NCBI GenBank assembly: GCA_947502835.1
Contig: CANNBJ010000004.1
Location: 295,669 to 359,668, forward strand
Length of the DNA: 64,000 bases
Source: Bdellovibrionales bacterium
Lineage (GTDB): Bacteria > Bdellovibrionota > UBA1018 > CAIMNF01
Direction of reading: 5' to 3'
Shown: piece by piece, positions 3,949 through 60,696 of the stretch
Numbering within the stretch: position 1 is the stretch's first letter
Layout: the number at the start of each line of letters is the position of its first letter
Translations under genes and position numbers: made by a program
The notes under the pieces: model-generated
Seen by the model: the letters and a program-made list of their open reading frames with translations, nothing else
What the model was told of the DNA's origin: nothing
Databases searched by the model: none

Positions 3949-6494
3949 TCCTCCTCGCAGTTACCCCCTCTTGTACCAACGTCGGGCAAAGATTCGGACG
4001 CACCACGACGGGGGATCCCTCGGTTTTCACCGGAACAGACTTCAATTCAGTGGCATTCACGCATCAACTGAGCAACGTCTCGGTTGCGCAGGCATCCGGA
4101 GGAGCTACCGGAAATTCAACGCCACAGGTGAACCTGACCCTTGCTTTGAATACGAATGTCGCGGGCTTCACTCCCATCACGCAGTTCTGCGGGACTGGTG
4201 CCAATCCCTGCGCCTGCGAGTTGAATTGGAAGCATACCGACTCCAATGGCCAGCCGCTCTATGATCGTTCCCGCAGGGTGTCGGTCACGACTGTCCAGAG
4301 CGGGAGCGTGAGTTGTTTGATGGCCCAATCGGAATGGGATGAAATCGTACCGGGCGCGATCCTTTCGATTCGCATCGTACCCGTGGGTGGAAATGCAAGT
4401 GGCTTGAATTGTAAAAAAATAGGGTACCGGAAAGGGCAGTCGACCAATCCGAACGGGGATTTCCTGGACGAGACCTTGAACGGATTTCGGAACATCCATC
4501 GCTACACGTGCCATACCAAGCGAAATGCGGCGCATGAAATCCTGAATCGCTTCAGGAGTGTTTCAAAAGTCTCGAGTGCACCCCAAGATGGAAGTGGCGG
4601 GGACCCGGGGGCTTCAAACGAACCCGTGAAGACCTCCGTGGGCACATGTTTCTGCACAGCCCTGTCGGGAGGAGCTGCAAGTGGCGGAGGCAGTTGCAGC
4701 AATCTCCAGTGCCCGAATCTTGCGAGAGCGGGATATTCAGCGCAGAATTATTATCGAAACCTGTATGTCAGATCCGATATTCTGGGCCAAATCAACTCAA
4801 GCAATCTTACTTATGAGTGCCCGAAGGTTCTTGAGTCCGTGAAAGTGAGCGCTGCATCGAGTGCGGGCGCCACCTCAATTCCGCAAGCCGAGCAGAACAA
4901 ATACTGGCCGCTTGATTCTTCCTTTGCGCTCGCAACCCAGTGGTCATCGGAGTGGAGCATTGGAATCATGGCCGGCTCTGTGCTGTTGAAGCCCGGGGAT
5001 CCTAATACCAATCCGGGCACTCCAGAGGTCTGCCGGAACTCGAGCTCTCGATTCAATGAAAACGGGATTTTTCCAAAGTGTCTGGGGTACGCGAAGCCTG
5101 CCAATGGCGATGGAACCTGCGGAACCATGACCGACAGCACCGGAAATGTTCGCCCTCTGGTGCGCCTTCGTCGCTACAGGGCGGTTCTGCCTCCCCGCTT
5201 TGATTCGAACGGGGATCTGGAAGGTGGAGGGAGTCAGGGACAGCAAGGTGGTGGAGGTGGGGGAATCTTTCCGGCGGTGGATGAGATTTATGTAGCGGAC
5301 CGATTGGTTCTTGATCAGAATGCGCTTCCCACCGGAGACATGATTTATGGACCAAAGCCCTGCAACTATGCCTGGTTTGATCATGAGGGCGTGGTGAATC
5401 GGACGGGGACTTCCAATGAGTTTGAGACCAATATCTACACCACGCCCACACAGAACGTAGGGGTGCCGTCCTATGTGGGAACCAATCGTTTTTACCGGAA
5501 TTCGGGAACGTCCGGGTGGGATCCAAGTCTTTCCGTGAATCCGGACGGGCTTGTGTTTCCCAATCACGATCGCTTTGGTCTCGGAATCGAGACCCGGAAC
5601 CAGACTTCGTGCTCGGCGTCGATTCCGATCGTGAATTACAATCAAGGACAGGCACAATCCCTTTCTCTGTTCACCTCAAACTCCAATCGGACCTCGGCTG
5701 CCATCAACTTGGGCGGGTACCTGGTGGGTAGCAAGACCGTCTATCAGGATGAAATTCACCTGCGGCCGATTGATCCGTGGACTCCTCAGTATCTGGAGGA
5801 CACATCCTTCAGGGCCTGCGTTCCGCTTTCAAGCGAGTTTACCGAACCGCCTCTTCACTTTTACAAGGATGCGAACGATCGCTATGCTTGGTGCGCCGAA
5901 GTGTATCCAAGCCAGAATCCCTACTGGTCCGAAATCAATAAAAAGCGAAGAGTATTCAATCCCACCTCGTCCTCTGATCCGGAGCTGATCAATTCCACCA
6001 ATCTTGTGGGTTATCCGACTTCAACGGCCAAGGTTCAAGGATACACTTCCCACGTGGTCAATATTGCAGGTCAGAGTGCTTGTTCCGCGACCCCAGGGAA
6101 TCAGATTTGTACAATGACGACATCCGCGGGAGCCGGGTTCAACAACTGTGTGAGCTTTTTGAATCGCACGTCCGGCCTCACCTGTGATCGGACTGTAATG
6201 TTCAACCCATTTCAGGACTATCGGGATTTCCCGCTTCAGGCAAGTGCCGCCGATACGGAAGCCATGTTGAGTGCCGATCTTGCCAACCAGGGGTCGTTTT
6301 CCTGCACCTATTCTGTGAGCTCGGATCCGCAAAAGGTGAATCGGCAGTTTCCGTCTTCCGCATGTTGCGGAGTCCGGAATGGCGGTCCTGTCTTGAATAG
6401 TCTGATCGGCCCGGGTGCGGGGTCGGGACATCTTGAGCCGTTTTCCGACCCGAGTGCACCGAATTTCCGCTTTTGCGGATCTCCTGTTCGCTAA
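3924..6494 (+). CDS. large Cys/Gly-rich secreted lipoprotein, unknown function
   Basis: Internal Met at 3924 gives MRVAILGLILLAVTPSC-TN, the same C-T-N lipobox context as the previous gene. Overlaps the previous gene by 25 bp, so likely an operon. Contains the GGGSQGQQGGGGGG tract. ORF track lists 3846..6494. Confidence 0.55.
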   Translation: MRVAILGLILLAVTPSCTNVGQRFGRTTTGDPSVFTGTDFNSVAFTHQLSNVSVAQASGGATGNSTPQVNLTLALNTNVAGFTPITQFCGTGANPCACELNWKHTDSNGQPLYDRSRRVSVTTVQSGSVSCLMAQSEWDEIVPGAILSIRIVPVGGNASGLNCKKIGYRKGQSTNPNGDFLDETLNGFRNIHRYTCHTKRNAAHEILNRFRSVSKVSSAPQDGSGGDPGASNEPVKTSVGTCFCTALSGGAASGGGSCSNLQCPNLARAGYSAQNYYRNLYVRSDILGQINSSNLTYECPKVLESVKVSAASSAGATSIPQAEQNKYWPLDSSFALATQWSSEWSIGIMAGSVLLKPGDPNTNPGTPEVCRNSSSRFNENGIFPKCLGYAKPANGDGTCGTMTDSTGNVRPLVRLRRYRAVLPPRFDSNGDLEGGGSQGQQGGGGGGIFPAVDEIYVADRLVLDQNALPTGDMIYGPKPCNYAWFDHEGVVNRTGTSNEFETNIYTTPTQNVGVPSYVGTNRFYRNSGTSGWDPSLSVNPDGLVFPNHDRFGLGIETRNQTSCSASIPIVNYNQGQAQSLSLFTSNSNRTSAAINLGGYLVGSKTVYQDEIHLRPIDPWTPQYLEDTSFRACVPLSSEFTEPPLHFYKDANDRYAWCAEVYPSQNPYWSEINKKRRVFNPTSSSDPELINSTNLVGYPTSTAKVQGYTSHVVNIAGQSACSATPGNQICTMTTSAGAGFNNCVSFLNRTSGLTCDRTVMFNPFQDYRDFPLQASAADTEAMLSADLANQGSFSCTYSVSSDPQKVNRQFPSSACCGVRNGGPVLNSLIGPGAGSGHLEPFSDPSAPNFRFCGSPVR

Positions 6495-24842: not shown

Positions 24843-26699
24843 CTCCACTGTGACCGACTTCGCGAGATTCCTTGGCTTGTCGATGTTCCGGCCCAGGGCC
24901 TTCGCACAACCATAGGCAAGAAGCTGCAGCGGGATCACAGACAGGATCGGCTGCGTCCCCCAGGATGACTGGGGAAGGCCGATGAATTCATTTGAGAGGC
25001 GTTTCGCCTCTTCATCGCCTTCGGTTCCGATCGTGATGATGTGTCCGCCGCGCGCGCGGATCTCCTCAAGGTTGGAGATGGTTTTTGAATACCACTCGTC
25101 TTTCGGCGCAAGCGTGATCACGGTGACTTTCGGGTCAATGTAGGCGATCGGTCCGTGTTTGAGTTCTCCTGCCGCGAAGCCTTCGGCGGGAAGGTAGGTG
25201 AGTTCCTTGAATTTGAGCGCGCCTTCGAGAGCGATCGGGTACATGGTTCCGCGGCCCACGAATAAAATGATGCGCTGATCCTTGAGCGTCTCGCCCATCT
25301 TCATGAACGTTTCGCTTTGCGAGAGCACTTGGTCGAGGTCCTGCGGCAATCGGGCAAGTCCGGTGAAGGACGCTTGTACCGACTCCTTCCCGTCCTGGAG
25401 TCCGCGAAGTCGTGCCACATCCAGCGCAAGTGCGCACAAGATGGTCAGTTGCGAAGTGAATGCCTTGGTGGAGGCGACCCCGATTTCGGGTCCCGCCTTC
25501 GTGGGATATTGAAAGCCGCTTTCGCGCGCGATAGTGGAGTTCGGGACGTTGCAGATCGAGAAGGTCGAAACGCCGGCCTGGTTTGCAAGTCTCAGGGCTG
25601 CAAGTGTATCCGCGGTTTCGCCGGATTGCGAGATCACGCCCACCACGGTTCCGGGCTCGAACACGGGGCTTCGGTAACGGAACTCGGAGGCAATATCGAT
25701 CTGACAATCAAGCCGTGCCCAACGCTCGAAAAAGTATTTTGCCGCCATTGCAGCATGGCTGCTGGTTCCGCAGGCAATGAGATAGAGGCGTTTCACGTTT
25801 TTCCAAAGGACTTCATGGGCTTTTTGATGGTCCCAGATGAACGAGCTCTTTTGATCGACAGGGAGGCGGCCCGTGAGCGTGTCGGCCACCACCAGGGGTT
25901 GTTGGAAGATCTCTTTTAACATGAAGCTCTCAAAGCCGGCTTTCTCAACTTTGTCTGCGGTCCAATCGATCTTCTCGAACGAAAGACCTTTGTTGCTTGC
26001 ACTGGTGAGCTTGACCCCGGTCTCATCCGCTACGAAGATTTCACCCTTGGGCAAGAAGCAGACTTCATTGTGATACGGAACAATCGCTTGGAGGTCGCTT
26101 GCAATCAGGGCCCCGGTTTTCAAGTTCGAGACCACAAGAGGGGCGCCGTTCTGGATTCCAAAAATCTTTCCCGGAATGGACTGAGACATGAGGACAATCG
26201 CATAGTGACCCTCCACCTCGGTCATCGCTTGTTTCATGGCATTGAGAAGTATGGTTTCGGCGGTCGCACCTTCTGATTTTTTTGCGATCTCCCTGCGTCT
26301 GAATTCGATGAGTTGGGCGAAAACTTCTGTGTCGGTTTGCGAGGAGAACTTCACGCCTTCCCGGCTCAGCATGGTTTTGATCTCGGAGTAGTTTTCAATG
26401 ATGCCATTGTGAACGAGGACGATGTCGCCTGCCCGGTGGGGGTGGGCATTGGTTTCGTTTGGCGCCCCATGGGTTGCCCAACGGGTGTGCGCAATTCCTT
26501 GGGTTTCCGTTTTGCCGCACTCAAGACTTGCATCGACAAGTCCTTGCACGGGACCCGCATTGCGCTTGATCTCGAAATTCCCCTTCGAGAAAAGCGCAAA
26601 GCCCGCGGAGTCATAGCCACGGTATTCAAGACGCTTCAGGCCATCCAAAAGAATGGGGAGAGCTTGGTTTTTTCCGACGTATCCGACGATTCCACACAT
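24840..26699 (-). CDS. glmS: glutamine--fructose-6-phosphate aminotransferase (isomerizing)
   Basis: N-terminal MCGIVGYVG with nucleophilic Cys2. Two SIS domains. C-terminal ...KSVTVE. 619 aa. Confidence 0.9.
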   Translation of the reverse strand: MCGIVGYVGKNQALPILLDGLKRLEYRGYDSAGFALFSKGNFEIKRNAGPVQGLVDASLECGKTETQGIAHTRWATHGAPNETNAHPHRAGDIVLVHNGIIENYSEIKTMLSREGVKFSSQTDTEVFAQLIEFRRREIAKKSEGATAETILLNAMKQAMTEVEGHYAIVLMSQSIPGKIFGIQNGAPLVVSNLKTGALIASDLQAIVPYHNEVCFLPKGEIFVADETGVKLTSASNKGLSFEKIDWTADKVEKAGFESFMLKEIFQQPLVVADTLTGRLPVDQKSSFIWDHQKAHEVLWKNVKRLYLIACGTSSHAAMAAKYFFERWARLDCQIDIASEFRYRSPVFEPGTVVGVISQSGETADTLAALRLANQAGVSTFSICNVPNSTIARESGFQYPTKAGPEIGVASTKAFTSQLTILCALALDVARLRGLQDGKESVQASFTGLARLPQDLDQVLSQSETFMKMGETLKDQRIILFVGRGTMYPIALEGALKFKELTYLPAEGFAAGELKHGPIAYIDPKVTVITLAPKDEWYSKTISNLEEIRARGGHIITIGTEGDEEAKRLSNEFIGLPQSSWGTQPILSVIPLQLLAYGCAKALGRNIDKPRNLAKSVTVE

Positions 26700-26867
26700 G
26701 GTGCCGAGACCTTACTAAACGGGGCTTGATCTGGCTAGGATGAATTGCCCGGCAAGGCGCCGAAAATCCCTTGAAATCATTGAAAAAGGGGCGGATTTTC
26801 CGCGTGGCGGGACGAAGAATCTCAGCCGGCATCCCTGAATGGGGTTGTCCTGAGGCTGCTCTGCCCT

Positions 26868-26979
26868 GAAGAGATTGGTACGACCTGTGTTGCGGCCGAC
26901 TCTCGCGAGTGAGGACACACGAAAGCGAGGCCGCAGGACGCGGCTCGGAGGCCAAAACACAGGTCGTACCAATCTCTTC
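26868..26979. repeat. palindromic repeat element copy 1 (conserved ~60-nt core flanked by a copy-specific perfect 24-bp inverted repeat)
   Basis: Arms gaagagattggtacgacctgtgtt / aacacaggtcgtaccaatctcttc. Core gccgactctcgcgag...cgaaagcgaggccgcaggacgcggctcggaggcc is shared, in reverse complement, with the copies at 47175, 48925 and 60541. Confidence 0.7.
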
Positions 26980-27029
26980 ATGGTGAGTGCAGCTCTCGGC
27001 TCAATCTTATTCAAAGATGGCGGTTGGAT

Positions 27030-41486: not shown

Positions 41487-42725
41487 ATGGAGTGGACTGC
41501 AGATCAGACCCGCGCACTTGAGATTCTTTCCGGGCAGAACAATGTGTTTTTGACCGGCGGGGCGGGCACGGGCAAGTCCACCGTGATCTCGGAATTCATC
41601 CGAAAGCAGGAATCCGTGGCGGTTCTTGCATCCACGGGCACCGCGGCCATCCTGCTGGGCGGACGAACCCTTCATTCGTTTTTCGGACTTGGAATCATGG
41701 AAGGTGGTGCCGACGCGGTGGTGGAGCGGGCACTCAAGCACCGCGGGATCGTTCAGCGCCTGCGTAAAACAAAGACGGTGCTCATTGATGAGATTTCCAT
41801 GATCGGTTCCTCCGAGCTTCAATGCGCGGAAAAGATTGCGCGGAAGGCACGCGCGAACTCCGCCCCCTGGGGAGGGCTTCGGATTGTGGCGATCGGAGAT
41901 TTTGCCCAATTGCCTCCGGTGGTCCGTTCCGTTCCGGGGCAAACCGAAACCCAGCGTCCCTGGTGTTTTTCCTCCGAGGTCTGGCGCAATACACTCTTTG
42001 ATCCGGTGGTGATGAAAGAGATTGTCCGTTCGCGGGACTCCGAGTGGAACCGCGTCCTGGGAGAAATCCGCTTCGGTGAAATCGAGGAGCATTCCTTTTC
42101 AATCCTTCAGGAGCGGGTGAGGCCCGTGGGGCTCCAGTTTGAGGGAACCCGGCTGTTTGCGAGGAGAAATCAGGTGGATTCCTTGAACTCGGATCGACTG
42201 AAGATGTTGCCGGGAGCTGCTCGCGAGTATCCAACCGTCTACATGGGGAACGCCCAGCGGTTGGATGAGCTGAAGCGCAATGCCCCGATTCCTGAGTTTT
42301 TGTTTCTGAAGGAGGGAGCTCTGGTGATGTTCCGCCAGAATGATCCGGAATACCGGTTTGTGAACGGCACCCTCGGAAAGATCGTGAAGCTCAAGGATCA
42401 TGAAGTCGAAGTGGAATTGTTTTCCGGAAAAACGATTGAAATGAAACCGGCAACCTTCAGCATGCTCGATGCCGAAGGAAACGTGCTTGCGAGTGCCACG
42501 AATTTTCCGCTCAATCTTGCTTGGGCCTGCACGATTCACAAGGCCCAGGGTGCGACCCTCGACCGTGTGCATGCCGATCTGAACGGAGTCTGGGAGCACG
42601 GGCAAAGTTACGTAGCCCTCTCTCGGGTCAGGTCCTCCGAGGATCTTTCGCTCTCGGGCCTGAGCCCACGAAGTTTCAGGCTTGATCCCGAAGTCGCCGG
42701 ATTCTATCGATCACTCCGGGTGTGA
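41487..42725 (+). CDS. Pif1/RecD-family ATP-dependent DNA helicase
   Basis: TGGAGTGKST Walker A. VLIDEISM Walker B. C-terminal motif WACTIHKAQG. Confidence 0.75.
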   Translation: MEWTADQTRALEILSGQNNVFLTGGAGTGKSTVISEFIRKQESVAVLASTGTAAILLGGRTLHSFFGLGIMEGGADAVVERALKHRGIVQRLRKTKTVLIDEISMIGSSELQCAEKIARKARANSAPWGGLRIVAIGDFAQLPPVVRSVPGQTETQRPWCFSSEVWRNTLFDPVVMKEIVRSRDSEWNRVLGEIRFGEIEEHSFSILQERVRPVGLQFEGTRLFARRNQVDSLNSDRLKMLPGAAREYPTVYMGNAQRLDELKRNAPIPEFLFLKEGALVMFRQNDPEYRFVNGTLGKIVKLKDHEVEVELFSGKTIEMKPATFSMLDAEGNVLASATNFPLNLAWACTIHKAQGATLDRVHADLNGVWEHGQSYVALSRVRSSEDLSLSGLSPRSFRLDPEVAGFYRSLRV

Positions 42726-47092: not shown

Positions 47093-47138
47093 TAGGCCCT
47101 CTTCCTTTAGCCAGGAAGTGGGCCTTTTTTTTGGCCCG
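47093..47138 (+). terminator. intrinsic terminator downstream of rpmG-rpmE
   Basis: Hairpin ggccctcttcc-tttagcca-ggaagtgggcc (11-bp stem with one mismatch) followed by T8. Confidence 0.65.
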
Positions 47139-47174
47139 CCGTGAGTGGGAGTTATTTCAAGTGATTTAGAGCTA

Positions 47175-47284
47175 CCTTGCTTTGGATTGATGGTTCTTTG
47201 GCCTCCATGCCGCATCCTGCGGCCTCGCTTTCGTCAGTCCTGACTCGCGAGAGTCGGCCAAAGAACCATCAATCCAAAGCAAGG
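47175..47284. repeat. palindromic repeat element copy 2 (conserved core, 29-bp perfect copy-specific arms)
   Basis: Arms ccttgctttggattgatggttctttggcc / ggccaaagaaccatcaatccaaagcaagg. Core ...gccgcatcctgcggcctcgctttcgtcagtcctgactcgcgagagtcggcc. Confidence 0.7.
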
Positions 47285-47386
47285 CGGACCAAAGCACCTG
47301 AACGAGTGCACCACTACGGAGGGCCAAAAAAATGACCGCATCTTGGCATTTTTGAGCAGACTTATTCTCAGGGGGTCTTTTCGTCG

Positions 47387-47420
47387 GGAGTTACGACTTT
47401 TTGAGCGAGCCAAGGATGGC
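47387..47420. repeat. 34-bp perfect direct repeat, copy A (overlaps the 3' end and stop codon of the AAA+ ATPase gene)
   Basis: ggagttacgactttttgagcgagccaaggatggc is identical to 48804-48837. Confidence 0.85.
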
Positions 47421-48557
47421 TCCTGCCCATAGACGTTGCAAGAAAAGCTCGTAAGGGAGAATCTCGATTCCGTCTTCGGTTTTCGAGGCCTCGCTGAATC
47501 TACCCACGATCATTCCCCGGGGGACTTTGGATTCTTTTAAAAACGCCCGAAGGCCCTTGAAGTGATCGTCCTTCACTTGTTTTGAAAATTTGATTTCAAT
47601 CGCAATTTCACGATCGATGATCAGATCCACCTCATAAGATTTGCTTCGCCAATAACTCATTTCACTCAATGACCTTGAATAAGAAAGGTAGCTTCTGACC
47701 TCTGTCATGATGAACTGCTCAAAGGAGATGCCGATGTCACTATGTGCCTCGCTCAGGTGAAACCTCTTACAGAGGAAATTTGCAACACCACAATCAAACC
47801 AGTACAACTTCGAGCGGCTACTGCCTTTGCGACTCATTCGAGACCGATAGGGCTCAAGCGTGAACGCGAGCAGCGTATCCTTCAGGACTTCGAGATGGTT
47901 CTCAATGGTACGGGCGGGAACACCCGAATCACTGGCGAGTGCTGCAAAATTTAATTCTTGTCCGTTTCCAAGGGCAGCAACTTCAAGGAATCGGACAAAA
48001 CGCTCGTAATTTCGAACCAGAGCTTCGGCCTTGATCTCCTCTGAAAGATAGGTTCGGACATAGGCTTTGAGGTCCTGAAGGGGCTCTTCTGATTGATAGA
48101 TTCGAGGCAGGCCTCCGTAATTCAGGTAGCGAATCAAGTCGAAGTCTGTGATTTCAGAATGACTCAGGGGAAATAAATGGAGTTCGCGCGCCCTCCCCGC
48201 GAGTAGATTGGCTCCACCTCGCTTGAGTTTCCGCACCGAGCTTCCCGTCAAAAGAAACCGTTTTTCGCTGTTTTCAATGAGACGGTGAACCTCATCGAGC
48301 AATTTCGGAAGCTTTTGAATCTCATCGATGACTACGAAGCGAGTTTCAGGTTTGATTTTCTCAGACAAGGCCTTGGGTCGAAGGAGCAGTTCCTCGTAAA
48401 GATCATCATCAAGTAGATCAAAAATCTGCGCGTCCGGAAGACGGGAGCGAACCAGCGATGATTTGCCGGTTCCTCTTGGACCAAAAAGGAAGAGGTTTGA
48501 TTTTTGTAGATGTGCTTCCAGCTTTAGGGATCGAGGATACATGTCGAAAGTATACAA
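47391..48557 (-). CDS. AAA+ ATPase with C-terminal DUF4143-type domain, in a low-GC island
   Basis: Walker A LFGPRGTGKSSL. Walker B VVIDEIQKLP. Architecture typical of the DUF4143 ATPase family. GC clearly lower than flanks. Confidence 0.7.
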   Translation of the reverse strand: MYTFDMYPRSLKLEAHLQKSNLFLFGPRGTGKSSLVRSRLPDAQIFDLLDDDLYEELLLRPKALSEKIKPETRFVVIDEIQKLPKLLDEVHRLIENSEKRFLLTGSSVRKLKRGGANLLAGRARELHLFPLSHSEITDFDLIRYLNYGGLPRIYQSEEPLQDLKAYVRTYLSEEIKAEALVRNYERFVRFLEVAALGNGQELNFAALASDSGVPARTIENHLEVLKDTLLAFTLEPYRSRMSRKGSSRSKLYWFDCGVANFLCKRFHLSEAHSDIGISFEQFIMTEVRSYLSYSRSLSEMSYWRSKSYEVDLIIDREIAIEIKFSKQVKDDHFKGLRAFLKESKVPRGMIVGRFSEASKTEDGIEILPYELFLQRLWAGAILGSLKKS

Positions 48558-48803
48558 TAAACGGCAATTACTTGCTGAAAAATAATCAAAATCGGCAACA
48601 CAATGCTGAAATATCTTTTAATAATGATTTCATAAACTTGTAATTGCCCGAGGCGGGGGCGATCTCTCGGAAGAATCCCTTTTCATCGGGCCTGGCCTTC
48701 AGCCGTGTGGAGGAGCCCCCCTTTTGATTGATGAATTTTTGAAACTGGCCTCGTTCGCCGTTGATGGTTGGAAGATCGAATCAGTAAACCCTTTCATTCA
48801 TCA

Positions 48804-48837
48804 GGAGTTACGACTTTTTGAGCGAGCCAAGGATGGC
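48804..48837. repeat. 34-bp perfect direct repeat, copy B (duplicate of the ATPase 3' end, about 250 bp upstream of the ATPase start)
   Basis: Identical to 47387-47420. Confidence 0.85.
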
Positions 48838-48924
48838 GACAGCGAAAAGAACAGGATGTTCGGGGGGAGTGCCAAGTGGTCTCTTTGAGTGGGCATGGCC
48901 TTTGGGCTTGTGGAGGCGAACCCC

Positions 48925-49020
48925 TTTGGTTCTTGGAGGTTTAGCCGACTCTTGCGAGTCAGGACTGACGAAAGCAAGGCCGCAGGATGCGGCTCGGAGG
49001 CTAAACCTCCAAGAGCCAAA
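48925..49020. repeat. palindromic repeat element copy 3 (reverse orientation relative to copy 2), nested inside a further 21-bp inverted repeat (48878-48898 / 49047-49067)
   Basis: Arms tttggttcttggaggtttagcc / ggctaaacctccaagagccaaa. Core gccgactcttgcgagtcaggactgacgaaagcaaggccgcaggatgcggctcggagg. Outer IR ggtctctttgagtgggcatgg versus ccatgcccactcaaagaggcc. Confidence 0.7.
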
Positions 49021-49074
49021 TGGGATAACCTACCTAAATCTAAATGCCATGCCCACTCAAAGAGGCCAGTTTGA

Positions 49075-49449
49075 TCACTGCTGACCTGAACCCGTGGCCT
49101 CAAGTTTCGCCCGTTCGTCGAGGATTGCATTGAGTTTGCTCTGCGCGATGGCGTCGAACACGATGGAGAGGCCAAAGATTGAAAGCACAACCGCAAGAAG
49201 CGGGTCCGAGTCCGAATCCTTTCCTGTGATGGTTGCGATTTCCTCGGCCTTTTTGTATTCGTGAAAAATGAAATAGATCCCGCAGGTGAGCAGCGAGAGC
49301 AGGTAGACCTTCCAAAAAGAGTACCGCTCCTCTTTGAGCAGATAGTTCAGGGTCTGAATCTGTTTTCTTTGCACGATCAAGTTCCAAAGTCCGCACAAAA
49401 GAATGGTCAGGATCAGGTCAAGGGCGATGTTTCTGGGGGCTGGTCTCAT
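49075..49449 (-). CDS. small membrane protein (DUF4234-like), unknown function
   Basis: 124 aa with three hydrophobic helices. Confidence 0.45.
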   Translation of the reverse strand: MRPAPRNIALDLILTILLCGLWNLIVQRKQIQTLNYLLKEERYSFWKVYLLSLLTCGIYFIFHEYKKAEEIATITGKDSDSDPLLAVVLSIFGLSIVFDAIAQSKLNAILDERAKLEATGSGQQ

Positions 49450-57870: not shown

Positions 57871-60534
57871 ATGTCGAAATCCGGAAAATCATTTAAAAAA
57901 GTCGAAGGAGTGGATCCGTCCTCGCTTCCCAAGAATCTCGAATTCCCGAAGGTCGAGGCCGAGCTTCAGGCGCGCTGGAGCACTGAGGGCACGTACAGGT
58001 TTCACGAAAATGACACCCGCCCCGTTTTTGCTGTCGACACTCCTCCTCCCACGGTTTCGGGCTCTCTCCATGTGGGCCATATCTTCAGCTACACTCAGAC
58101 CGACATCCTGGCGCGATTCCAGCGCATGAAGGGAAAGAACGTCTTCTATCCGATGGGATGGGACGACAATGGGCTTCCGACCGAGCGGAGGGTGCAGAAC
58201 TTTTTCCACATCCGCTGTGAGGCAAATCAGCCCTACGAGCAGGGGCTTGATCTGCCGCCGATTCTCTCGACGATGACCGAAAAGGAACTCGAGGCAAAGA
58301 AGCTCCCGCAGCGGAACCTTTCGCGCAAAAACTTCATCGAGCATTGCCACAAACTCACACATGAGGACGAAAAGCTTTTCAAGAAACTCTGGAGCCACAT
58401 CGGGTTGTCAGTCGACTGGAGTCTTGAGTACGCGACCATCGACGATCACTCGCGCAAGATCGCACAGTTGAGTTTTTTGGATCTTCACCGCAAGAACGAG
58501 CTGTATCAGGTGGAAGCCCCGACCCTTTGGGATACCGACTTCCAGACCGCAGTGGCGCAGGCGGAACTCGAGGACCGTGAGATTCCGGGCGCCTTCCACG
58601 ACATTGAGTTCGAGGTTGAGGGCGGAGGCACATTCACGATCGCCACCACGAGGCCCGAGTTGCTTGCTGCCTGTGTGGGGATCACCACGCATCCATCGGA
58701 TGAGCGGTATCGCTCGCTCATTGGAAAGTTTGCGGTAAGCCCCCTGTTCGGGGTGCGAGTGCCGATTTTTGGCAGCGAGCTTGTGAATCCCGAGAAGGGG
58801 ACAGGGATCCTGATGGTCTGTACGTTCGGGGATCAAACCGACGTGCAGTGGTGGCGGGAACAGAAGCTGCCGCTCCGCCAGATCATCGGCCGGGACGGAA
58901 GGCTTCAGCCCGTGAATTTTTCGTCCCCGTTGTTTCCCTCACGGAATCCGGAAGAGGCGAGCTCGAATTATCAGGTCATTGTCGGGAAGACCGTGAAGCA
59001 GGCCCAGAAGGCCATCGTCGAAATCCTGCAAGCAAAGGGCGCGCTCAAGAATCCTCCCAAGCCCATTCAGCACGCCGTGAAGTTTTATGAAAAGGGCGAT
59101 CGGCCCGTGGAGATCCTGACCACTCGCCAGTGGTTCGTGAAACTCGTCGACAAAAAAGAAAAAATCATCGAGTACGGATCCAAAATCCAGTGGCATCCGG
59201 AGTTCATGTACTCTCGTTTCAAGAACTGGACTGAGAATCTCAGCATCGACTGGTGCATCAGCCGGCAGCGATTCTTCGGGGTCAGCATTCCGGTGTGGTA
59301 CCCGCTCGATGCAAAGGGGGCGATCGAGTACTCGCGCCCTCTGATGCCGTCACAGGCCCAGCTTCCGGTTGACCCCATGTCGGATGTCCCGGAAGGCTAT
59401 CAGGAATCCCAGCGCGGAAAGCCGGGTGGATTCATCGGAGAGTCGGATGTGTTCGACACCTGGTTCACCTCTTCGCTCACTCCGCAGCTCGGATCGCATT
59501 GGGAGGTGAATCCCGAACGCCACCGCAAGCTCTTTCCGATGGATGTTCGTCCACAGTCACACGAGATCATCCGCACGTGGGCGTTTTATACGATCGCAAA
59601 AGCGATGCTCCATGAAGAAAAAATCCCCTGGAAGCACATTGTGATCTCTGGCTGGGTGCTTGATCCGGATCGGAAGAAAATGTCAAAATCCAAGGGCAAT
59701 GTCGTGACGCCCTCGCAGTTTCTGGACGAGTTCGGTGCGGATGCGGTCCGCTACTGGTCTGGTCTTGCGCGCTACGGGGTCGATACGGCCTTTGATCCGG
59801 GCATCATGAAGATCGGGCGCAGGCTTGCCATGAAGCTCTTCAATGCGGGCAAGTTCGTGCTTGCCCAGGGGGCCATCGAGGGTGCGATCACAGAACCTCT
59901 CGATTTGGCGTTTTTGGCAAAGCTGAAAAAGCAGGTCGAAGATGCAGGGCGTGCCTTTGAAAACTTCGAGCCTGCCCAGGCGCTCATGGAGACGGAGAAG
60001 TTTTTCTGGTCGCACTTCACGGATTCTTATCTTGAGCTGGTGAAGGGCAGAACCTGGGGTGAGAAAACCTCCGCATCCGACCTTGCTGCCAAGGCTTCTG
60101 CGGTTCATGCGCTTCGTTTAGGACTGAGTGCCTTCCTCAGGCTCTTTGCACCCTTCCTTCCGTACACCACCGAAGAAGTGTGGAGCTATGGATTCACTGC
60201 GGTTTCCAAGAGCATCCATCATGCGACCTTCCCGCATGCGGGGGATTTCGACGGGGTCACAGCAGGGGATCCTGCGATCTTTGATGCGGCAATGGCAGCC
60301 CAGAGCGTGATCAACCAGCAAAAAACGGTGTCGAAGGTTTCGATTGCAAGGCCTGTGGTAAAGGCGGGCATGCGAGCCAATTCAAAAACAATCGAGAGCT
60401 TTCTTCCCGCGGCTCGTGATGTGATGGCCGCCTCCAAGGTAGAGCAGATCGACTGGATCAAGGATGAGGCTTTGTCTGCAAATGAGTTCCGGGTGGAAAC
60501 CATCGAATACGGACCGGAGCCGGTAAAGACCTAG
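57871..60534 (+). CDS. valS: valine--tRNA ligase (short, archaeal/eukaryote-like type without C-terminal coiled coil)
   Basis: HIGH-like HVGHIFSY. KMSKS. Editing domain. 887 aa. Confidence 0.85.
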   Translation: MSKSGKSFKKVEGVDPSSLPKNLEFPKVEAELQARWSTEGTYRFHENDTRPVFAVDTPPPTVSGSLHVGHIFSYTQTDILARFQRMKGKNVFYPMGWDDNGLPTERRVQNFFHIRCEANQPYEQGLDLPPILSTMTEKELEAKKLPQRNLSRKNFIEHCHKLTHEDEKLFKKLWSHIGLSVDWSLEYATIDDHSRKIAQLSFLDLHRKNELYQVEAPTLWDTDFQTAVAQAELEDREIPGAFHDIEFEVEGGGTFTIATTRPELLAACVGITTHPSDERYRSLIGKFAVSPLFGVRVPIFGSELVNPEKGTGILMVCTFGDQTDVQWWREQKLPLRQIIGRDGRLQPVNFSSPLFPSRNPEEASSNYQVIVGKTVKQAQKAIVEILQAKGALKNPPKPIQHAVKFYEKGDRPVEILTTRQWFVKLVDKKEKIIEYGSKIQWHPEFMYSRFKNWTENLSIDWCISRQRFFGVSIPVWYPLDAKGAIEYSRPLMPSQAQLPVDPMSDVPEGYQESQRGKPGGFIGESDVFDTWFTSSLTPQLGSHWEVNPERHRKLFPMDVRPQSHEIIRTWAFYTIAKAMLHEEKIPWKHIVISGWVLDPDRKKMSKSKGNVVTPSQFLDEFGADAVRYWSGLARYGVDTAFDPGIMKIGRRLAMKLFNAGKFVLAQGAIEGAITEPLDLAFLAKLKKQVEDAGRAFENFEPAQALMETEKFFWSHFTDSYLELVKGRTWGEKTSASDLAAKASAVHALRLGLSAFLRLFAPFLPYTTEEVWSYGFTAVSKSIHHATFPHAGDFDGVTAGDPAIFDAAMAAQSVINQQKTVSKVSIARPVVKAGMRANSKTIESFLPAARDVMAASKVEQIDWIKDEALSANEFRVETIEYGPEPVKT

Positions 60535-60540
60535 ACGCTT

Positions 60541-60649
60541 AAACTGTCTTTTGGGATTGGTATTTTGTCTCCGAGCCGCATCCTGCGGCCTCGCTTTCGC
60601 GCATCCTGCGCTCGCGAGAGTCGGCAAAATACAAATCCCAAACGACAGT
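60541..60649. repeat. palindromic repeat element copy 4 (conserved core, 26-bp arms); imperfect outer arms extend to 60523-60667 and include the valS stop codon
   Basis: Arms aactgtcttttgggattggtattttg / caaaatacaaatcccaaacgacagtt. Core ctccgagccgcatcctgcggcctcgctttcgcgcatcctgcgctcgcgagagtcggc. Outer arms gtaaagacc / gggtctttac. Confidence 0.7.
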
Positions 60650-60696
60650 TCATGCCTCGGGTCTTTACGCTTCCACGCACCTTATTTTCAATTTAG

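Follow-up and report, generated by a model that had tools for sequence, protein, structure and literature searches.

Two described families of MITEs (miniature inverted-repeat transposable elements) are the nearest points of comparison for the repeat reported here. Chunjie, from Geobacter uraniireducens (Chen et al. 2008), measures 178–235 bp and has 21-bp terminal inverted repeats (TIRs), 9-bp direct repeats and a hairpin energy of -98 to -130 kcal/mol (PMC3184786, PMC10969869). QMITE2, from Coxiella burnetii, is ~190 bp long, with TIRs of 23–29 bp, direct repeats of 7–9 bp and a transcript hairpin of ~-113 kcal/mol (PMC10969869). Direct repeats are known to fade in older MITE copies (PMC10969869). 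The subject of this report is a nested inverted repeat, copy 3, at positions 48874–49071 of a 64-kb stretch of Bdellovibrionales DNA (contig CANNBJ010000004.1, positions 295,669 to 359,668; the whole stretch is called the window). Copy 3 belongs to a previously undescribed repeat family of freshwater Bdellovibrionales, the kind of element itself being ordinary; a literature search on Bdellovibrio with MITE or hairpin repeats found nothing relevant. The element is probably a non-autonomous DNA transposon, specifically a foldback MITE of ~198–202 bp, and by analogy it appears closest in design to Chunjie and QMITE2. Compared by description only, it resembles Chunjie in size, in its TIRs (~21–25 bp across the two families), in 9-bp direct repeats and hairpin energy, in having intergenic copies some of which overlap gene ends, and in the coexistence of full and partial copies. 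It shares with QMITE2 the size, TIRs, direct repeats and hairpin, together with many truncated copies that resemble plain palindromes.

Copy 3 was resolved into the parts given below, where the strand of this and any other copy is the orientation of the core GCCGACTCT...GGAGGC.

48874–49071, + strand: copy 3, full-length type A, 198 nt from an AACTG-like end to CAGTT, covariance model score 128.7 bits
48874–48898, + strand: left TIR of copy 3, AAGTGGTCTCTTTGAGTGGGCATGG, two mismatches to the family consensus; the "second-layer" arm of the sequence-only reading
48944–49002, + strand: conserved core, a three-way junction with stem P2a (CUYGC/GCRAG) around P2b (GUCAGGACUGAC), then P3 (GCCGCAGGAUGCGGC)
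49047–49071, - strand: right TIR of copy 3, which reads AACTGGCCTCTTTGAGTGGGCATGG on the - strand, no mismatches to the consensus

The sequence-only reading had reported that copy 3 is enclosed by an outer pair of 21-mers, ggtctctttgagtgggcatgg (48878–48898) and ccatgcccactcaaagaggcc (49047–49067), complementary at 20 of 21 positions. The pair was found exactly as quoted, and its sole non-complementary position is a T·G pair. A repeat finder placed the arms at 48874–48946 and 48999–49071 (73 nt, 81% complementary, with 52 nt between them). Upon folding, the 206-nt stretch around copy 3 formed one hairpin both as RNA and as DNA. The + strand RNA fold reached -127.2 kcal/mol (z-score -13.7; 0 of 200 shuffles as good), the opposite strand -110.1 kcal/mol (z-score -11.1) and the DNA fold -66.5 kcal/mol (z-score -12.3). 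The mirror-image peptide GLFEWAW was located in open reading frames (ORFs) 48818–49084 (+) and 48801–49196 (-); it appears on both strands because the palindrome is read both ways, and it is not coding. The only ORFs through the element are such mirror-image artefacts, and none is a transposase gene.

It is extremely improbable that the outer complementarity reflects chance or an assembly artefact, since z-scores range from -9 to -14 and the same outer repeat is present in independent assemblies of several genomes. Chance would have been indicated if other copies lacked outer complementarity; instead, copies in other genomes carry the same outer repeat. The chance explanation finds some footing at copy 4 only, where 9-bp outer arms were seen that occur in no other copy, and for copy 3 it is refuted: the outer inverted repeat is the TIR of a repeat family of ~198–202 bp.

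The family was collected by scanning metagenome-assembled genomes (MAGs), metagenomes and viral contigs with an exact 22-base core pattern, which matched in three Bdellovibrionales MAGs (25 stretches) and in freshwater metagenomes (10 contigs) and had no match in the viral contigs. A covariance model (R1) built from 38 copies gave 46 matches at E values up to 1e-7, including copies without the exact pattern. In total, about 50 copies were collected from the three MAGs and the freshwater metagenomes (305 kb examined). The family TIR is ~25 nt long and begins AACTG, with the consensus AACTGGCCTCTTTGAGTGGGCATGG, and this sequence or close variants of it end the copies in loci L006, L009, L014, L027, L029, L030, L032, L033 and L034. 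The element end is also written as AACTGGCCTC and AACTGGCCTCNNNGNNNGGGCATGG, and a second subfamily ends in AACTGCYCCCTTTGATTGTGCTTGG. The length from AACTG to CAGTT is 197–202 nt in at least 13 copies; with two extra bases per end, this corresponds to a 202-bp element and a 9-bp duplication. From outside to inside, the element consists of the ~25-bp TIR, a poorly paired middle, a near-perfect inner stem of ~25 bp and a core of ~57 nt that reads GCCGACTCTYGCGAG-hairpin-CGAAAGCRAGGCCGCAGGAYGCGGCTCGGAGGC in the four window copies.

Two departures from this layout were observed. The type-A copy at L007 1835–2090 carries a structured insert of ~60 nt in P2b, comprising two extra G+C-rich hairpins, with the other core parts and the stem intact. 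At L024 7722–7791, a 70-bp perfect palindrome consists of two TIRs of the second subfamily alone, an internal deletion without arms or core. A sister type, B, was found in the window and also at L028 2003–2132, L011 1669–1798 and L002 6114–6242. Types A and B share the first ~11 nt of the end (AACTGGCCTCG), the tip architecture and the loops, and little else; the stems differ, P3 being GAACAGGAUGUUC in type B versus GCCGCAGGAUGCGGC in type A. A flip of the type-B core between the window and L002 was considered and set aside, because the arms can be aligned in either orientation and clear orthology of the flanks is lacking.

Several features by which MITEs are recognised were observed: the element is short and without a transposase gene, it has TIRs, its recent copies are flanked by direct repeats, and many near-identical copies are dispersed. 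In a young subfamily (L027, L029, L030, L032, L033 and window copy 3), copies at unrelated sites are 88–97% identical; the figure is 88% for copy 3 and the L030 copy and 97% for L029 and L033, which have 6 differences over 198 positions and do not share their flanks. Flanking direct repeats were found at L029 (AAGCTGATA, 9 of 9 nt), L033 (GCAATATGC, 9 of 9) and L030 (TTGAAGG, 7 of 7), lying 1–4 nt outside AACTG...CAGTT. When flanks of different copies were paired, only 1 of 240 mismatched pairs reached a repeat of at least 7 nt. Furthermore, L001 has two type-A copies (5028–5446) where L010 (1245–1424) has another, unrelated hairpin element, which demonstrates turnover of hairpin elements at an intergenic hotspot. 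The L010 element, designated type C, has arms GGCTGCTGAAAAAGG... and occupies the exact intergenic site of the two L001 copies. At another shared site, L012 has a copy and an extra ORF, and L034 has a 30-nt spacer.

The core is built of two small hairpins on a three-way junction and is nearly invariant over ~57 nt, while the arms vary between copies yet stay complementary. By MAFFT/RNAalifold, compensatory changes were present in 27 of the 38 predicted pairs. In the model-fitted alignment A3, 96.6% of 1673 cells pair, versus 36–49% with slid partners; 32 of 38 pairs changed on both sides, and the observed values were reached in 0 of 500 shuffles. Because A3 was fitted to the model structure, its pair counts lean towards that structure, and MAFFT/RNAalifold serves as the independent check. 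The second pair of P2b was seen as U-A, C-G, G-C and A-U, and P3 as GCCGC/GCGGC and GCCGG/CCGGC, or GAAC/GUUC in type B. The loops (NGGAY-type, GUGAY) and junctions remain constant while P2a, P2b and P3 covary, in types A and B alike. The P3 loop is AGGAY in nearly all copies; in P2b, many copies have AGGAC, AGGAU or AAGGAU as the loop, and the JBEIJY subfamily has GUGAY throughout. Covarying stems with constant loops argue against the tip being a double-stranded binding site and therefore suggest that it is recognised in single-stranded form, as RNA or as extruded DNA.

Constraint on the core was also evident between genomes. Across five pairs of orthologues, each drawn from different genomes, identity is 94.3% in the core, 72–78% in the arms and 70–89% in the 150-nt flanks, so the constraint acts at the locus and not through recent copying alone. 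Ungapped per-zone identity understates conservation to the left of the core, where P2b differs in length by 1 nt, and the gapped orthologue comparison was therefore relied on. The core has also been inverted in situ between orthologous loci. In L006 and L009, the grpE-side flank and adjoining arm align at ~95%, and the 64-nt core is identical but reverse-complemented; the core of L032 is likewise flipped relative to the L029 group, its subfamily. A three-way-junction tip that is far more constant than the ends of the element itself, and invertible, is the unusual part of this family.

Such a core could be a functional structured RNA carried by the repeat, for example a GGA-loop protein-binding module (CsrA/RsmA-like) that the long stem merely presents. 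The covariation of P2a, P2b and P3 around constant loops and junctions, the AGGAY loop of P3, the GGA in P2b of many copies and the retention of the core in place beyond that of the flanking, mostly coding, DNA would all suit this explanation, as would a slight G·U excess on the reference strand. The tip loops may resemble CsrA-type GGA hairpins, and a whole subfamily, JBEIJY, has GUGAY and not GGA in P2b. A search of the whole window against Rfam 15 gave no match at the gathering score, and around copies 2 and 3 only noise (E > 2, searched to E 10); no promoter-like site was found at the elements. Genes that read into an element meet its core in both orientations, ~12 versus 6 in tandem contexts; these counts are approximate, as are the distances to stop codons in these loci, since gene calls were crude longest ORFs. 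On the strand transcribed from the abutting gene, G·U-type and A·C-type mismatches are balanced (40 versus 45, summed by hand). A structured-RNA function is thus quite unlikely. The in-situ flip, which leaves the sequence of the core unchanged, the mixed orientation and the null result for transcribed-strand mismatches favour a palindrome at the DNA level, and a strand-specific RNA is less likely. The sequence-only reading had spoken of a structured RNA or a recombination hairpin. The multi-layer hairpin it described is real, conserved and covarying; its layers are the ends and body of a probable transposon, and no strand-specific RNA is indicated.

A broader proposal makes the tip a module that functions in single-stranded form, with two NGGAY-type loops for recognition by a protein; the transposon would bring it to gene 3' ends, and inversion would switch it from one strand to the other. 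We regard this as distinctly doubtful. Were it true, the family would be a mobile post-transcriptional or protein-titrating element, or alternatively a transposon that propagates through a folded intermediate, which would explain arms that are different but matched in each copy.

The position of the copies raises the question of a service to the host, in which the hairpins would act as REP/BIME-like 3'-end structures, either stopping transcription or blocking 3' exonucleases and so setting how stable the upstream mRNA is. Published MITEs and REPs have been reported to act in this way (PMC3184786, PMC10969869). Elements in the window start 3, 4, 7 and 11 nt from the stop codons of, respectively, a DUF4234 gene, a gene for an SNF2-type helicase, valS and a 413-amino-acid gene ending at 42725; the distance is 2–17 nt in many other loci. 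Copies 2 and 4 lie between convergent genes, and the stems are very stable on either strand. There is, however, no T-run after the right end of the copies, as an intrinsic terminator would have, and the one site returned by a terminator scan was marginal, lying within the core on a single strand; the earlier statement that this is not a simple terminator therefore stands. The gene rpmE keeps its own terminator upstream of copy 2, and a 3'-end role leaves the conserved non-palindromic core, the TIRs and the target duplications unexplained. Proximity to stop codons fits either a target preference or the loss of insertions that part promoters from genes in compact spacers; adjacency could equally arise from purging of harmful insertions. 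On this evidence, a primary role at mRNA 3' ends appears unlikely.

The element might instead move or recombine as a folded single strand, in the style of attC sites, IS200/IS605 or parvovirus rolling hairpins, with the tip as the enzyme recognition site. Its shape, a long stem capped by two small hairpins, would agree with this, as would the retention of structure while sequence is free and arms that match near-perfectly while almost every copy has its own sequence there; the tip, which is seen in both orientations, would flip and flop as a by-product of hairpin replication. The 25-bp TIRs and 9-bp target duplications mark staggered-cut (DDE-type) insertion, and the named single-strand systems are not known to make such TIRs and duplications. 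No integrase, HUH or Y1 gene was noticed beside the copies, by eye and not systematically, and inversion of a loop between short inverted repeats needs no special enzyme. We consider movement as a single strand very improbable.

The preferred explanation remains a foldback MITE. A transposase supplied in trans would bind the terminal repeats and insert the element through 9-bp staggered cuts, and the insertions that survive would sit just downstream of stop codons, where they are least harmful. The arms may be kept complementary mainly by DNA-level processes, either template switching or hairpin-directed correction, and not by selection on a transcript; the same processes could flip the loop. 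Both processes are familiar from quasi-palindromes. The tip would be read single-stranded, as extruded DNA or RNA, by some protein, most likely one needed for propagation of the element, and any effect of a 3' hairpin on neighbouring mRNAs would be secondary.

Several observations weigh against this explanation. Of the 16 well-bounded copies, just 3 show target duplications, and these 3 belong to a single young subfamily in one metagenome; their absence from older copies agrees with expectation from the literature (PMC10969869). No clean empty site was found among the orthologous loci, where pairs differ by replacement or by extra genes, and neither the window nor the 35 loci (305 kb) yielded an autonomous element that joins these ends to a transposase. 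BLAST of copy 3 against plasmid and phage collections returned no matches. A conserved middle with variable ends is the reverse of a textbook MITE, which implies that something besides transposase binding constrains the core. Since the pattern used for searching dictated 24 nt of the core, part of its conservation is owed to ascertainment. Core positions outside those 24 nt are conserved in the same way, as is the core of copies picked up through the model or their TIRs. Finally, G·U exceeds A·C on the reference strand of the core (137 versus 96), a weak excess among copies that are not independent, which leaves some slight room for one strand being the folded one.

Copy 4 lies beside valS (ORF 57871–60534) and was found to differ from the other copies in layout.

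60523–60531, no strand assigned: left flank arm gtaaagacc, the last three valS codons; pairs with 60659–60667 and lies outside the element
60532–60534, + strand: valS stop codon TAG, in the internal bubble that separates the flank arm from the end of the element
60542–60650, - strand: copy 4, 109-nt short form of the element, 110.2 bits, with the core at about 60567–60625
60659–60667, no strand assigned: right flank arm ggtctttac, outside the element

In this short form, TIR-like ends (AACTGTC.../...GACAGTT) flank the core directly; its own ends are AACTG at 60542–60546 and CAGTT at 60646–60650, and it starts 7 nt past the valS stop. The stretch 60515–60675 folds as one hairpin (z-score -9.3 as RNA, -9.7 as DNA), and the outer arms gtaaagacc and ggtctttac, corresponding to those that the sequence-only reading had drawn around copy 4, are present and paired in both folds. 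Two further statements made about these arms did not hold. The valS stop is not inside the left arm, since TAG directly follows the 9-nt arm on its 3' side, in the bubble; and the arms are not a family feature, because they are flanking DNA 8–10 nt outside the element ends. The longest inverted flank repeat among 240 mismatched flank pairs was 8 nt, with no exact 9-nt repeat like the one at copy 4. Insertion into pre-existing palindromes as a general rule was rejected, as flank complementarity of the 16 well-bounded copies did not exceed the level of the mismatched pairs.

Type A is represented in the window by three full copies, a short form and a half copy, and type B by two pieces. The exact core is present in four copies, with none expected by chance. 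In three of these four, exactly 52 nt separate the long arms, which match within a copy and differ between copies. The remaining features are as follows.

26825–27025, + strand: copy 1, full-length type A, 117.9 bits
42737–42814, - strand: type-A half copy with TIR, arm and the first 8 nt of the core
47127–47332, - strand: copy 2, full-length type A, 124.3 bits, with a perfect 29-bp inner stem and degenerate outer TIRs TTTGGCCCGCCGTGAGTGGG / CCACTACGGAGGGCCAAA
47386–47419, + strand: type-B core fragment, within the 54-nt direct repeat 47380–47433 / 48797–48850
47391–48557, - strand: AAA_14 and DUF4143 gene (PADLOC candidate PDC-S01), with copies 2 and 3 on either side as an inverted pair
48742–48870, + strand: truncated type-B element with TIR AACTGGCCTCGTTCGCCGTTGATGG, left arm and complete B core, without a right arm; abuts copy 3

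The outer layer is also present in copies 1 and 2, in degenerate form. Copy 1 lies between glmS (start 26699, 125 nt away) and the SNF2-type helicase gene (stop 27030, 4 nt away); a glmS ribozyme was looked for upstream of glmS (26699–26825) and gave no Rfam match at the gathering score. Copy 2 is positioned just after the terminator-like hairpin of rpmE itself (47095–47134, GGCCCTCTTCC...GGAAGTGGGCC followed by T8), whose T-run overlaps the degenerate left end of the copy. The half copy starts 11 nt past the stop of the 413-amino-acid gene (41487–42725), and the DUF4234 gene beside copy 3 (49075–49449, - strand) has its stop 3 nt from the right TIR. The 54-nt direct repeat 47380–47433 / 48797–48850 represents two pieces of type B, one of which encodes the end of the AAA_14-DUF4143 gene (~14 codons and the stop). 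An IS200/IS605-TnpB or other transposon around this 388-amino-acid gene between copies 2 and 3 was considered and discarded once the gene was identified as AAA_14 and DUF4143.

Elements that lie next to each other are nearly always arranged (-,+) by core, with the cores facing away from each other and 8–100 nt between elements. Such pairs were seen at L001 5072/5298, L003 34/245, L022 7031/7235, L031 ~900/1058, L002 6114/6413 and L011 1669/1847. Window copies 2 and 3 are also (-,+), but with a gene between them, and the only exception is the window type-B element (+) beside copy 3 (+).

Single genes or small sets of genes (a DUF4143 pseudogene, a HepT-like gene, a secreted protein) were found between a solo TIR and a complete element, at L009 5297–6407 and L007 1–322 (contiguous, JAGWXK010000017.1) compared with L006 1142–2887, and also at L030 50–1155; in a related genome, a single element stands between the helicase gene and grpE. 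These arrangements look like MITE-bracketed cassettes or rearrangement at elements. All four AAA_14/DUF4143 genes in the 305 kb directly adjoin an element (window 47391–48557, - strand; L009 5502–6380; L024 114–959; L032 2–508), and two of them are decayed. The stops of the L009 and L024 genes lie 8 nt from a TIR. DUF4143 is PD-(D/E)XK-like; scanning was confined to two of the proteins, those of the window and L024, and both match the PADLOC candidate defence family PDC-S01. The enrichment of these genes beside elements is at most suggestive, as the loci were picked for containing elements. If the tip were the strand-switchable protein-recognition module considered above, this repeated adjacency of AAA_14-DUF4143 genes (PD-(D/E)XK-like, PDC-S01) could be functional and not incidental.

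The family explains the striking palindromes of 110–200 bp, the spurious mirror-image ORFs and the odd gene ends in these genomes, and covariance model R1 can be used for masking the elements. It also adds a MITE family to a poorly studied lineage of predatory bacteria. A constrained internal three-way junction with drifting ends offers a tractable case for asking what a MITE must keep besides transposase binding, and palindrome dynamics in bacterial chromosomes gain two natural markers, tips inverted in situ and hairpin elements replacing one another at shared intergenic sites.

Among known systems, the inverted terminal repeat of parvoviruses such as adeno-associated virus is an analogy in shape only, with its long stem, two small cap hairpins and flip and flop tip. 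It forms the ends of linear single-stranded genomes and is processed by an HUH Rep protein, whereas the present repeats are interspersed in chromosomes with target duplications, and no Rep gene was seen by the elements, by eye. Membership among attC or IS200/IS605 elements was rejected in view of the TIRs and 9-bp duplications, and no cognate gene was seen beside the copies by eye. REP/BIME and REPIN sequences are likewise abundant intergenic hairpins, often past stop codons or between convergent genes, and can form doublets. REPs are conserved palindromes of 20–40 nt moved by RAYT (Y1) without target duplication, in contrast to the 200-bp units, TIRs and 9-bp duplications found here; membership in REP/REPIN was rejected because target duplications occur and the sequence of the stems is not conserved.

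Chunjie differs from this family in being A+T-rich with conserved TIRs, compared with ~55% G+C and a middle more conserved than the ends. QMITE2 belongs to an unrelated host, and no covarying three-way-junction core or core inversion was reported there (PMC10969869). Motifs in the body of a MITE-like repeat have precedents in Correia/NEMIS of Neisseria, which has an IHF site, and bcr1 of the Bacillus cereus group, in which compensatory changes keep a cruciform-like RNA fold; both are transcribed together with neighbouring genes (PMC2229807, PMC3184786). Correia/NEMIS and bcr1 resemble this family in being MITE-like and in carrying internal motifs of a functional or structural kind, and differ from it in their target duplications (5 bp for bcr1). 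The Correia and bcr1 families are defined by their ends, whereas types A and B described here have in common only an end of ~11 nt (AACTGGCCTCG) and the architecture of the tip.

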